Shown here: piece after piece, positions 1 to 57,320 of the stretch | How positions within the stretch are numbered: position 1 is the first letter of the stretch | How the letters are laid out: every line of letters starts with the position of its first letter | Source: Candidatus Jorgensenbacteria bacterium | GTDB lineage: Bacteria > Patescibacteriota > Minisyncoccia > UBA6257 > GWB1-50-10 | Direction: 5' to 3' | Length of the DNA: 64,000 bases | Assembly (NCBI GenBank): GCA_011050075.1 | Contig: DRGK01000012.1 | Coordinates: 771-64,770, forward strand | Notes under the pieces: model-generated | The model's input: only the letters and a program-made list of their open reading frames with translations | Told to the model about the DNA's origin: nothing | The model's database searches: none | Translations under genes and position numbers: made by a program

Positions 1-424
1 TCCTTCCGGCAGAGGATGTAACGCCAGCATTGTCGCTGATAAATTCCTTCCTGCACAGCGAAAAACTTCACCTGAATTCCAATGCTCTACCGAAACGTTC
101 CGGAGAATGAGATACGGGCACCAGTGTTTTTCGAGAACAATCTGCGTAACAGCAGCCGGGGACGTCTATCCCTGTATTATGGAACGAGATGCACCACTCG
201 GGAACGTGTCTGAAAAGAGCCTACATAATATTCTACGAAACAATAAAGCAAAGGAAATCCGTTTTCTTAACAAGGACAATATAGAGGTATGTCGGGACTG
301 TGAATACAGGTACGCATGCTTTGACTGTAGACCAAAGGCACAAGGCAGCTCGCCCGACAACAATCTGTATGCCAAACCGAATGACTGTCAATACAATCCT
401 TACACCGGCGTGTGGGGATTATAA
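1..424 (+). CDS. Radical SAM enzyme, C-terminal SPASM/twitch domain (5'-truncated at window edge); putative peptide-modifying maturase
   Basis: The frame is open from nt 2 with no stop before the listed M. Cys clusters CVTAAGDVYPC and CRDCEYRYACFDC (Cx2Cx5Cx2C) are typical of SPASM auxiliary Fe-S domains. A Cys-rich peptide gene follows directly. Confidence 0.6.
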   Translation, partial: PSGRGCNASIVADKFLPAQRKTSPEFQCSTETFRRMRYGHQCFSRTICVTAAGDVYPCIMERDAPLGNVSEKSLHNILRNNKAKEIRFLNKDNIEVCRDCEYRYACFDCRPKAQGSSPDNNLYAKPNDCQYNPYTGVWGL

Positions 425-445
425 CTCAACCGAAAGGAAGTGATT

Positions 446-670
446 ATGGAACTCATCAAAGTAACGTCTCAGGAACAGGAAGGTCGCCACACCAATGCAG
501 CTGTTATAAAGGTCAATACAGCCGAGAATGGTGCGGCGAGGGCATGCCATCCTGCCAACGACCCATGTCCACCTACACAGCCATGTCTTCCTCTAAACCC
601 ACACAGTCCGTGTAATCCTGACATTGTTCCCTGTAACCCAGAAGTATGCGGCCCATATACGTTCCCATAA
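446..670 (+). CDS. Candidate RiPP precursor peptide (74 aa from the ATG; the ORF track starts at GTG 440). The leader is followed by a core with six Cys-x-Pro motifs
   Basis: AAGGAAG lies 5-6 nt upstream of ATG 446. The C-terminal 45 residues, ACHPANDPCPPTQPCLPLNPHSPCNPDIVPCNPEVCGPYTFP, hold six Cys, each followed by Pro or Asn-Pro. The gene sits immediately downstream of the SPASM radical SAM gene, and a strong terminator follows. Confidence 0.5.
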   Translation: MELIKVTSQEQEGRHTNAAVIKVNTAENGAARACHPANDPCPPTQPCLPLNPHSPCNPDIVPCNPEVCGPYTFP

Positions 671-694
671 TAGGAAATGTAGTCCGCACAAACC

Positions 695-731
695 AAAACC
701 CGCTCGAGCTTCGAGCGGGTTTTTATTTTTT
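695..731. terminator. Rho-independent terminator (bidirectional). A 9-bp GC-rich stem cccgctcga/tcgagcggg is flanked by an A-tract and a T-tract
   Basis: The perfect palindrome at 699-719 is followed by TTTTTATTTTTT. It lies between the convergent peptide gene (+) and the HExxH gene (-). Confidence 0.8.
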
Positions 732-1520
732 AAGTAAGTGTTTCACCACCTTTTCAAATTCAAAAATATCCTTTTTATCATCTTTCAAATATTTCCGCCA
801 ATGCAGCAATATCTTCTTCTCAATTTTCAATAACTCAGAGTGACCCACTTGCTTGCCGCCTTCATTAAAGTACTCCCCCATACCATTCAAACGAATCCTC
901 AGCTCGTTGTCACAAGCAAGTTCAATAATTGCGTGCATCACTTCACTGTCTCGCTGTTTAATCGTCAGTATATGCAGTAATTCATGGCATAAATACACCG
1001 TTGTATAATTTTTCCAATCCTCAGGATGCCCCCAGCAAATGGCATTTAATCGCAACAGTGCAACGCCGTTACGTAAGGCAGGGTGCGTTATGTACACCGT
1101 GATATCCTCACTCGGCAACGTGAGACCGGTAATCGCAGGGAGTTCACGAAGAACCAGGTCTTTATTCTGCTTCCATTGACGTTCAACAAAAGCGCAGTAT
1201 TTCTCTGTTTCACGGTATAATTGCTCAAATGCTTTATGACTAAGTCCTCTTTTGATTAATTGTTCTACATCCCCGCCAAATTCTTCAACTAATTTATCTG
1301 CATTGAGGTATAGAAACAGAACCTCATACAATCGGTGGTCCGCAAGGTACTTCACAAGCTCTGGGTATTCCTTCTTAATCCCCTGTTTAAATATTTTCCA
1401 CTCCGGAAATGGAGTTGGTTGGCGTACATTTAATGCATGTACTAAGAGGTATGGTTTATTAATAACGAAAGAAAAATCCATTATTTTTCCCATTATTACT
1501 CCTCTGTCTTCAATAAGCAA
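723..1520 (-). CDS. Hypothetical protein with an HExxH zinc-metallopeptidase-like motif (CHELLHIL, with a downstream Glu)
   Basis: A 265-aa ORF. The HELLH motif and a later IIELACDNE are gluzincin-like. No further family assignment is possible by eye. Confidence 0.4.
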   Translation of the reverse strand: MLIEDRGVIMGKIMDFSFVINKPYLLVHALNVRQPTPFPEWKIFKQGIKKEYPELVKYLADHRLYEVLFLYLNADKLVEEFGGDVEQLIKRGLSHKAFEQLYRETEKYCAFVERQWKQNKDLVLRELPAITGLTLPSEDITVYITHPALRNGVALLRLNAICWGHPEDWKNYTTVYLCHELLHILTIKQRDSEVMHAIIELACDNELRIRLNGMGEYFNEGGKQVGHSELLKIEKKILLHWRKYLKDDKKDIFEFEKVVKHLLKK

Positions 1521-1569: not shown

Positions 1570-2151
1570 ATGTTAATCCCGACCGTTATCGAAAAATCGC
1601 CGGACGGCGAACGGGTCTATGATATCTATTCCCGCCTCCTCAAAGAGCGGATCATATTCCTAGGCGGACCAATATCCGACTCACTCGCAAACAGTATTAT
1701 TGCGCAGCTTTTATTCCTTGACCATCAGGATTCAAAAAAAGATATTTTACTCTATATCAACACGCCCGGTGGCTCGGTAACTGCCGGTATGGCAATCTAT
1801 GACACGATGCAACATGTAAAAGCACCTGTCTCTACTATCTGCGTCGGCATCGCGGCGTCCATGGGTGCGGTACTTCTGGCAGCCGGACAAAAGGGCAAGC
1901 GGCTCGCACTTCCAAACTCGGAAATCATGTTACATCAGGTAATGGGTGGCGTTGAGGGACAGGCAATAGAGATCGAGATCACCGCAAAGCACATCATTAA
2001 GATCAAGGATAAGCTCAACCGCATCCTCGCCAAACACACCGGCCAGTTACTCAAGAGACTTGAGAAGGATACCGACCGTGACTTCCACCTGGATCCAAAA
2101 GAAGCGAGGGAGTACGGCATTATTGATGAAATTGTTAAGACGAAGAAATAA
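1570..2151 (+). CDS. clpP: ATP-dependent Clp protease proteolytic subunit ClpP
   Basis: [15 protein letters not shown], the catalytic Ser context GIAASMGA and the His context MLHQ match. Length is 193 aa. Confidence 0.9.
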
Positions 2152-3470: not shown

Positions 3471-3499
3471 GTCATCGTAATGTAACACCCTTACAGTTG

Positions 3500-3571
3500 T
3501 GCCCTCAGCAGGAATCGAACCCACATCTTGAGCTCCGGAAGCTCACGTTCTATCCGTTGAACTATGAGGGC
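3500..3571 (-). tRNA. tRNA-Arg (anticodon CCG)
   Basis: The reverse complement GCCCTCATAGTTCAACGGATAGAACGTGAGCTTCCGGAGCTCAAGATGTGGGTTCGATTCCTGCTGAGGGCA folds as a cloverleaf. It has a 7-bp acceptor stem, a GTTC/GAAC D-stem, the anticodon loop TTCCGGA and a TTCGATT T-loop. CCA is not encoded. Confidence 0.85.
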
Positions 3572-23058: not shown

Positions 23059-23130
23059 GTTGTGGGGCCGAAATACTTTCATATTTCGGCATCCTACAAA
23101 AATATAGTCGCTTCGCTCCTTATTTTTGTG

Positions 23131-23450
23131 GAGGTGGAGGGAATCGAACCCTCGTCCGGAAACTGACTCAAAAACATTCTACGAGTGTGTCTCTTTTACA
23201 CAAAAGAGCAAAGAAATTTGTTTCGTGGTTTTTTCAACCCGGTTCAGCACGAAACGAACCGAACAAGGCGGGTCTCATTATGACGCCGCTACTTTCCTAT
23301 GAGACATCAGAAAACGGCGCGGTACTACGCGTATGCGAGTGCCGGAACTGCTGTTTTGTTGGCAGTTATAAAGTTTTGGTGCGTTTAACGAGTTCACCAG
23401 CTCGACCCGCAGTTTTCAAGACATTATCCCCGTCGAAGCCATGCACCCCC
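23131..23450 (-). ncRNA. ssrA: tmRNA (SsrA)
   Basis: The minus-strand 5' end is GGGGGTGCATGGCTTCGACGGGG and the 3' end is GGACGAGGGTTCGATTCCCTCCACCTCCA (tRNA-like domain). The internal tag reading frame is GCC AAC AAA ACA GCA GTT CCG GCA CTC GCA TAC GCG TAG, giving ANKTAVPALAYA*. smpB is immediately adjacent. Confidence 0.85.
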
Positions 23451-57150: not shown

Positions 57151-57222
57151 GCCCCTGTAGTTCAAGGGATAGAACAAGCCCCTCCTAAGGGCTAGATCTC
57201 CGTTCGATTCGGGGCAGGGGCA
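57151..57222 (+). tRNA. tRNA-Arg (anticodon CCT)
   Basis: GCCCCTGTAGTTCAAGGGATAGAACAAGCCCCTCCTAAGGGCTAGATCTCCGTTCGATTCGGGGCAGGGGCA folds as a cloverleaf. The anticodon loop is CTCCTAA. CCA is not encoded. Confidence 0.8.
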
Positions 57223-57228
57223 CAGGTA

Positions 57229-57320
57229 GGTGGGGTGGCTGAGTCCGGTCGAAGGCGCCGCACTCGAAATGCGGTATGCCCGAAAGGGTATCGTGGGTTC
57301 GAATCCCACCCCCACCGCCA
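57229..57320 (+). tRNA. tRNA-Ser (anticodon CGA), long variable arm, CCA encoded
   Basis: GGTGGGGTGGCTGAGTCCGGTCGAAGGCGCCGCACTCGAAATGCGG…GTGGGTTCGAATCCCACCCCCACCGCCA has the anticodon stem-loop CCGCA-CTCGAAA-TGCGG. Confidence 0.8.

Follow-up and report, generated by a model that had tools for sequence, protein, structure and literature searches.

The stretch of DNA analysed here (the window) comprises 64,000 nucleotides of a Candidatus Jorgensenbacteria genome (Patescibacteriota; contig DRGK01000012.1, positions 771 to 64,770). Its left edge holds a three-gene cassette encoding a radical SAM enzyme, a small peptide with repeated Cys-x-Pro (C-x-P) units and an HExxH metalloenzyme (Table 1), referred to below as the maturase, the precursor and HExxH_A. 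An initial annotation of the window had proposed a candidate locus for a ribosomally synthesised and post-translationally modified peptide (RiPP). The terminator that it placed at the end of the unit is a hairpin with 7 G-C pairs in its 13-bp stem, a T-run on the + strand and an A-rich run ahead of the stem. This hairpin is identical in locus L004, a relative ~72% identical in DNA. The HExxH gene is convergent, as had been described, but the start given at TTG 1520 is probably wrong. ATG 1481 is the choice of gene callers and the point where the alignments of homologues begin, giving a protein of 252 residues.

Table 1. Features at the left edge of the window (positions in the window).
Feature	Position	Strand	Basis
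Maturase, 3' part (C-terminal 140 residues including the SPASM domain)	2-424	+	Translation; TAA stop 422-424
Shine-Dalgarno-like AAGGAAG	434-440	+	Sequence; 5 nt before the precursor ATG at 446; L004 counterpart AAAGGAG
Precursor, putative leader region (residues 1-33, family motif ELIKVT)	446-544	+	Leader/core boundary inferred
Precursor, putative core (residues 34-74 and stop, six C-x-P units)	545-670	+	Translation; family-wide C-x-P pattern
Hairpin terminator between two convergent genes	695-723	.	13-bp stem, 3-nt loop
HExxH protein (HExxH_A family; 252 residues, cytoplasmic, predicted zincin-like fold)	723-1481	-	HELLH encoded at 972-986
clpP, directly past the cassette	1570-2151	+	

The part of the maturase within the window is a stop-free frame of 140 residues that matches the Pfam SPASM domain (PF13186, 9e-13). 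It carries both cysteine motifs that had been read from it, C-VTAA-G-DVYP-C (CX4GX4C) and C-RD-C-EYRYA-C-FD-C (CX2CX5CX2C). Three public contigs carry the exact precursor sequence; L001, a marine-sediment metagenome assembly, is 100% identical to the window across the 1600 nt compared and reaches 2.7 kb further upstream. The initial annotation had named such an extension as the check on its radical SAM assignment, and the extension supplies the core. The complete maturase (L001:1876-3138) has 420 residues, of which the N-terminal 280 lie outside the window, and a 397-residue partial copy with 100% identity is deposited at NCBI. The full protein matches Radical_SAM (PF04055) above the cutoff at 3.2e-22, and its CX3CX2C motif is CNLRCLHC at residues 111-118 (Cys 111, 115 and 118), also outside the window. 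Seven SPASM cysteines (C322, C338, C377, C380, C386, C389 and C409) do not vary across 35 aligned relatives; an eighth, C328, is present in 24 of the 35.

About 100 residues precede the radical SAM core. Residues 24-221 of the maturase align to residues 18-225 of the CteB chain, and the N-terminal part of this CteB region is presumably its RiPP recognition element (RRE). A Pfam scan for PqqD (PF05402) gave no direct match in the window maturase itself; two of its relatives match the model. In the AlphaFold2 model (pLDDT, the predicted local distance difference test, 89.8), one or more strands and then three helices come before the core. The maturase probably has three parts: an RRE-like domain at the N-terminus, then the radical SAM core, then SPASM. 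A Foldseek search with the model returned CteB as the best solved structure (5e-15), followed by SuiB, SkfB and anSME (3e-13). A profile search ranked the solved relatives differently, with SkfB first, then anSME (3e-19) and CteB.

The precursor has 74 residues, from ATG 446 to the stop at 668-670: MELIKVTSQEQEGRHTNAAVIKVNTAENGAARA-CHPANDPCPPTQPCLPLNPHSPCNPDIVPCNPEVCGPYTFP. Its C-terminal part contains six Cys, as had been counted, at residues 34, 41, 47, 56, 63 and 68. The initial annotation gave this part 45 residues, and the string it quoted has 42. It also described each Cys as followed by Pro or Asn-Pro and most as preceded by Pro two residues earlier. The rule is simpler: all six Cys have Pro at +2 (CHP, CPP, CLP, CNP, CNP and CGP), and the flanking Pro, which four of them have, sits directly before the Cys at -1. 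Shuffling the 42-residue core reproduced six C-x-P units in 49 of 200,000 trials (p ~2e-4 given the core composition), and shuffling the whole peptide did so in 4 of 200,000. Among the 732 small open reading frames (ORFs) of the window, the precursor is the sole one with at least three C-x-P units. A second, degenerate copy of the leader motif lies inside the leader (ELIKVTS at residues 2-8, AVIKVNT at 19-25), which suggests an internal duplication. The spacer between leader motif and core is 26 residues, against 6-17 typically in the family described below.

A direct homology search with the precursor across 5.8 billion protein clusters returned itself and one close homologue, P0002 (62 residues). 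P0002 lies in L004, where the maturase and HExxH protein are ~80% identical to those of the window and the genes are in the same order. The two peptides share the leader N-terminus, MELIKVT.QEQE..HTN (first 18 codons), and the last 22 residues, PCNPD[IV]VPCNPEVCGPYTFP (window form PCNPDIVPCNPEVCGPYTFP). The middle of the precursor is replaced in P0002, including three of the six Cys, and the last three Cys are retained. Over the last 23 codons, 13 are identical between the two loci, 7 differ synonymously and 3 non-synonymously. This predominance of synonymous changes indicates that the precursor ORF is translated and under purifying selection. Scans of the precursor against NCBIfam and Pfam at E up to 1 found no match, the SCIFF peptide model included (TIGR03973, as we take that model to be).

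The wider family was reached through the maturase, whose relatives were collected by pattern scans of one-genome-per-species contigs and JGI metagenomes. This gave 95 loci with full-length maturase relatives, 93 of them with usable flanks (33-50% identity); the best 120 maturase matches were all full-length-like, at 40-53% identity. By the depositors' names, the hosts include Patescibacteria lineages, Marinilabiliaceae, Sporomusa, Thermacetogeniaceae, Latescibacterota and others, with Bacteroidota and Firmicutes among them. An adjacent same-strand ORF of at most 140 residues with at least three C-x-P units was present in 42 of the 93 loci; 36 of these ORFs lie downstream of the maturase and 6 upstream. 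Near the maturase, 42 of 607 ORFs are of this kind, against 3 of 2901 beyond 1.5 kb, a ~70-fold difference. A further ~15 precursor loci were recognised by inspection. Among them are L089 and L129, whose peptides resemble that of the window (M.LEIFKVTS...NCLPVCNPxICxPDTGxCGPTHxP), and a sub-clade with short CGPxxCP[WH]IDC cores.

C-x-P accounts for 277 of the 303 Cys in 40 distinct peptides, and position +2 is Pro in 91%, figures that are somewhat inflated by the preselection of the set for C-x-P. No other offset around Cys is conserved above 30%; position +1 is variable and Arg is not enriched at +4. The number of C-x-P units per precursor ranges from 1 to 21. As judged from these sequences, what the family conserves is the C-x-P unit; a fixed set of six Cys positions is not maintained. 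The expectation that homologues keep the Cys/Pro pattern is thus borne out at the level of the unit, and in the sole close peptide homologue it holds for the last three Cys. Ahead of the first C-x-P, 39 of 55 precursors carry a leader motif phi-x-phi-V-[TS], for example EIVLVT, TIELVT or LELKKVT, and in the window ELIKVT.

Several precursors depart from the window peptide in layout. One clade (L025:5244-5546, L115:5278-5544, L121, L122 and L123) is built of C-W-P-R-(Q)-Q/N units, 9-10 in tandem, and its leader (RPKWDRPEIEDWDD) is acidic and of a different kind; the clade lacks an HExxH partner and adjoins tig-clpP-clpX. The most extreme precursors (L135:1699-2097, L134:3768-4001, L013:3334-3678 and L118:5236-5580) contain 15-24 Cys; C-x-P takes in nearly every one of them, often with overlaps of the form PCxPCxP. 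Three of these loci, L013, L134 and L135, have the precursor gene upstream of the maturase gene, not downstream.

An NCBIfam scan of ten diverse precursors gave no match, and none of the 35 aligned maturases reached the cutoff of a curated NCBIfam family. Generic domains of the maturase aside, no curated NCBIfam or Pfam family covers the maturase, the peptides or the HExxH protein. In the full-text literature we found no account of C-x-P radical SAM peptides; most subscription journals were out of reach, and an earlier mention there is possible. The cassette belongs to a widespread family of putatively modified peptides that is common in Patescibacteria and undescribed in curated databases and the searched literature. 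The initial annotation had recognised no comparable RiPP in the candidate phyla radiation (CPR), a view that the frequency of the C-x-P family in Patescibacteria overturns.

These loci bear on the possibility that the small ORF encodes no substrate at all: it might have arisen by chance, or its product might be a Cys/Pro-rich peptide that binds metal and stays unmodified, with the radical SAM enzyme serving another role. In favour of this, the precursor has just the single close homologue noted above. Yet adjacent C-x-P ORFs recur beside maturase relatives in many phyla at the enrichment given above, the leader motif is conserved, the substitutions are mostly synonymous, and the ORF has a ribosome-binding site and shares its terminator. 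We regard this alternative as highly improbable. The co-occurrence of a complete radical SAM enzyme with Cys/Pro-rich ORFs in dozens of independent loci bears out the proposal of a RiPP locus, and the maturase and the 74-residue peptide very probably are an enzyme-substrate pair of a RiPP cassette. We take the cassette for a radical SAM/SPASM-modified, Cys-rich RiPP system that follows a precursor rule of its own and has a distinct leader motif and distinct partner enzymes.

Which known system the maturase resembles most was addressed with curated models. SCIFF membership, suggested by the initial annotation, was rejected: the SCIFF maturase model TIGR03974 scores 18.5 bits with the fragment (E 7e-4) against a cutoff of 425, and with the full protein at most ~64 bits, outside the best 25 matches. 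The best NCBIfam match of the window fragment is grasp-with-spasm (TIGR04193, 2.8e-24). This assignment was also rejected: the 95.9 bits of the full protein are below the cutoff of 175, the match covers only model positions 229-332 of 342 (the SPASM part), and no ATP-grasp gene is found in the locus or among the recurrent neighbours. PapB membership was rejected as well, at 66.9 bits against a cutoff of 340. Other scores are 104 bits for WgkB (cutoff 650) and 95 for StsB (cutoff 625).

The model of anSME, TIGR03942, scores 74.5 bits against a cutoff of 349. An anSME-like activity nevertheless deserves attention, in which C-beta hydrogen abstraction from the C-x-P Cys would give a thioaldehyde and then formylglycine, or a thio-oxazole as with SbtM, so that the product would be a peptide with several aldehydes or heterocycles and not thioether rings. 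The C-x-P unit is the first half of the sulfatase motif C-x-P-x-R (motif quoted in PMC13638132). With the +2 Pro as the sole conserved residue relative to Cys, a modification within the unit is suggested; C-W-P-R repeats occur in one clade, and anSME is among the closest solved relatives of this radical SAM/SPASM enzyme. The active site weakens the analogy. Asp277 of anSME, just after YPC and presumably its catalytic base, aligns with Ile339 of the maturase, where the family consensus is PCIMER. Moreover, anSME has no RRE and acts on folded sulfatase proteins, unlike the maturase with its RRE-like domain and leader-bearing peptide; Arg at +4 is not conserved, and no sulfatase gene was found in the locus. 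We rejected anSME membership and consider anSME-like chemistry quite unlikely. Of the two chemistries named as plausible in the initial annotation, we rank the thioether first, and the anSME analogy is weakened.

The maturase could also perform other radical SAM chemistry. It might epimerise residues to the D-form, install C-C cross-links or make long-range bridges of the sactipeptide type to variable acceptor alpha-carbons, with C-x-P serving merely as a structural or recognition element. Its NCBIfam similarity is spread evenly over diverse chemistries, the nominally best match being WgkB (7e-30), which forms a Lys-Trp link. A sactionine bond is made to the C-alpha of its acceptor and does not require the side chain there to be conserved, in keeping with the variable positions around Cys. 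On the other hand, Cys and the Pro at +2 are the sole conserved core feature. The lack of conserved aromatic residues makes C-C links of the streptide or triceptide type improbable for the majority of members. The Cys also extend to the extreme C-terminus with short spacings, unlike the sactipeptide hairpin layout. We consider this group of chemistries rather improbable.

We put a thioether first because the closest fold is that of CteB, together with the thioether chemistry of the enzymes that share this architecture: to our knowledge, every RRE-radical SAM-SPASM enzyme that has been characterised and that acts on a Cys-rich RiPP precursor (AlbA, SkfB, CteB, PapB, NxxcB and others) forms thioethers, with the exception of SbtM. 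That the modification is centred on the Cys of C-x-P is likely. Since the +2 Pro is the only residue conserved relative to Cys, it is probably local to each C-x-P unit and independent from unit to unit. The assignment of a thioether, which is drawn from analogy, we hold tentatively, at a little short of an even chance.

The third gene of the cassette recurs with the other two. HExxH_A homologues (35-81% identity) adjoin the maturase and precursor in 23 loci besides the window genome, mostly in convergent orientation, and clustering of neighbouring genes found this family, termed A, in 20 of the 95 loci. In 13 other loci the same slot after the precursor is filled by a second family, B (~288 residues, motif HEFGH; for example L162:5570-6445). 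No homology between families A and B could be detected (hhalign probability 0.9%, with the motif alone aligned). Family A comprises 541 clusters at 50% identity (E up to 1e-3), annotated as hypothetical proteins only, and its invariant residues are W103, G139, Y163, H166, E167, H170, H183, N192 and W228. In the AlphaFold2 model (pLDDT 93), HExxH lies on the active-site helix, with a beta-sheet before it and a third-ligand helix after it, as in zincins. Structural similarity is stronger to bona fide peptidases than to alpha-ketoglutarate (alpha-KG)-HExxH oxygenases, although the fold by itself cannot separate peptidase from oxygenase activity. None of 47 family A members had a relevant match in Pfam or NCBIfam at E up to 1, including TIGR04267 (mod_HExxH; IPR026337), which we take to be the model of the alpha-KG-HExxH oxygenases, and a PDB sequence search with the family profile returned nothing relevant.

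Some HExxH proteins of RiPP clusters are Fe/alpha-KG hydroxylases that act on Asp, His, Gln or, in the case of PesO, proline, and one such hydroxylase is also able to hydrolyse peptide bonds (PMC12636437, PMC13060819). Like HExxH_A, the members of this group (ChlH, BpmH, PflC/PosC and PesO) combine HExxH with a zincin-like fold and are found beside or fused to radical SAM maturases. HExxH_A could accordingly be a non-haem Fe/alpha-KG oxygenase that hydroxylates Pro, Asp or Asn of the core after the radical SAM step, with a housekeeping protease removing the leader. The core is very Pro-rich, and with H183, the third invariant His, a 3-His site would be possible. The searches and structural comparisons above speak against this, and the rare family fusions go to Peptidase_M23 and beta-lactamase-type hydrolases. 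A step dependent on O2 and alpha-KG would also fit poorly with a fermentative marine-sediment CPR host and an oxygen-sensitive partner enzyme. We consider the oxygenase unlikely. Hydrolysis is favoured because of the stronger peptidase matches, the lack of a match to the alpha-KG-HExxH model and the poor fit of an O2/alpha-KG step, and we rate a hydrolytic leader peptidase at about an even prospect. The initial annotation had offered this role as a possibility. With the recurrent linkage and the zincin-like fold it was a reasonable guess, though it had not considered the hydroxylase.

Some HExxH loci are unusual. The rare fusions are P0302 (491 residues) and P0364 (603 residues), to Peptidase_M23 and to a beta-lactamase/transpeptidase-type domain; they could be gene-call artefacts or a hint of a hydrolase link. 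Beside the HExxH_A gene of L167, a 158-residue ORF (L167:4752-5228, - strand; CCDCEFRYACSDCRA...) corresponds to the SPASM C-terminus of a maturase only and looks like a decayed or split cassette. In the Patescibacteria loci L087, L091, L097-L101, L112 and L171/L172, several radical SAM genes stand in tandem arrays together with small peptides and a number of dissimilar HExxH proteins. In L172:666-3043, for instance, a 435-residue radical SAM gene product is accompanied by a 42-residue peptide with a C-x3-C-x2-C core and a 295-residue HExxH protein.

Taken together, the data suggest a minimal three-gene RiPP cassette in which the maturase modifies each C-x-P, most likely to a thioether, and HExxH_A processes the peptide. 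The 74-residue product of 446-670 would be the precursor peptide, and its ELIKVT leader would dock on the RRE-like domain of the 420-residue enzyme. The enzyme may then work repeatedly along the core, taking each C-x-P unit as one module. Hydrogen-atom abstraction would come first, and a short-range thioether would then bond the Cys sulfur to a carbon in either the Pro or the neighbouring residue. The outcome would be up to six small rings, each with its turn fixed by Pro. The 252-residue zincin-fold protein would share this substrate, and removal of the leader is its most likely task. For this combination as a whole, we see the likelihoods as evenly balanced.

Several points weigh against it. 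The chemistry is inferred, and we know of no precedent for a Cys-x-Pro thioether. The maturase is about equally distant from SPASM families of differing chemistry (WgkB, StsB, AhbD, NirJ2 and PqqE, ~1e-25 to 1e-30), and C-x-P resembles the anSME target. The closest sub-clade, which is linked to HExxH_A, has mostly short cores of the form CGPxxCP[WH]IDC (CGPxxCPWIDC), in which only the first Cys is in C-x-P; C-x-P is therefore not obligatory. The linkage of HExxH_A is frequent but not obligate: among four distant members sampled, one from a cyanobacterium is located by an RND pump, one by a SPASM-domain remnant, and one has no adjacent radical SAM gene. Finally, the HExxH-linked precursors share no conserved cleavage-site motif.

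A bolder interpretation, which we regard as possible but doubtful, is that C-x-P peptides form a new RiPP class in which a dedicated radical SAM/SPASM clade installs an unprecedented modification local to each unit. A candidate is a three-residue thioether ring from Cys to Pro or from Cys to x, the sulfur counterpart of the triceptide cyclophanes. Such peptides would be widely made by Patescibacteria and other anaerobes, and zincin-fold finishing enzymes would have been recruited at least two times independently.

Among the neighbouring genes, the tig-clpP-clpX block adjoins the maturase in 10-12 other loci (L008, L025, L110, L113, L115, L116, L118, L120-L123 and L085), mostly of the C-W-P-R clade. 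A functional link between ClpP and the cassette is the less likely reading: the closest relative, L004, has dnaX at this place. The adjacency probably reflects synteny within one clade and coincidence. Just upstream of the window, a divergent gene for 245 residues (L001:1036-1773, - strand) has weak matches to TraB/PrgY/GumN (Tiki-like protease, E 0.04) and SfsA. Tiki/TraB proteins are reported in CPR graspetide loci (PMC8939145). The gene was rejected as a member of the cassette, having no homologue in the other 160 loci. Elsewhere, the window carries plain RNA genes at 23126-23450 (-), 3499-3571 (-) and 57151-57320 (+), comprising tmRNA (tag ANKTAVPALAYA), tRNA-Arg(CCG), tRNA-Arg(CCT) and tRNA-Ser(CGA).

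Patescibacteria have tiny genomes and their means of interacting with hosts are obscure; a compact, conserved peptide-modification cassette is a testable candidate for such a function. The simple precursor rule, a phi-x-phi-V-T/S leader followed by n C-x-P units, provides a handle for genome mining and heterologous expression, and the maturase clade contains several hundred sequences or more. Whichever chemistry applies, thioether, formylglycine or other, the substrate logic of SPASM enzymes would be extended. Two unrelated HExxH proteins in one slot also provide a natural experiment on peptidase versus oxygenase roles in RiPP pathways.

Among known systems, the SCIFF/ranthipeptide pairs (CteB-CteA, Tte1186) share with the cassette an enzyme in which an N-terminal recognition domain (RRE in CteB, RRE-like in the maturase) precedes a radical SAM core and a SPASM domain with two auxiliary clusters, CteB aligning along the entire length. 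Shared too is a precursor whose leader is followed by ~40 C-terminal residues that include six Cys. However, SCIFF cores lack the +2 Pro and are highly conserved, whereas the cores of the cassette family conserve the C-x-P unit only, in 1-21 copies; this family also has another leader motif and an HExxH partner, and the sequence similarity is at the superfamily level only. PapB with freyrasin (C-x3-D repeats) and the triceptide maturases (aromatic-x-x) resemble the proposed system in being iterative enzymes that act on a repeated short motif and form one ring at each, but C-x-P here lacks a conserved partner residue, whether acidic or aromatic. Of published descriptions, that of the CPR graspetide loci comes nearest; these loci combine ATP-grasp ligases, SPASM enzymes and zincin-superfamily peptidases (Makarova et al. 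2022, PMC8939145). The graspetide cores are rich in Thr, Ser, Asp and Glu, whereas those of the cassette family are rich in Cys and Pro.

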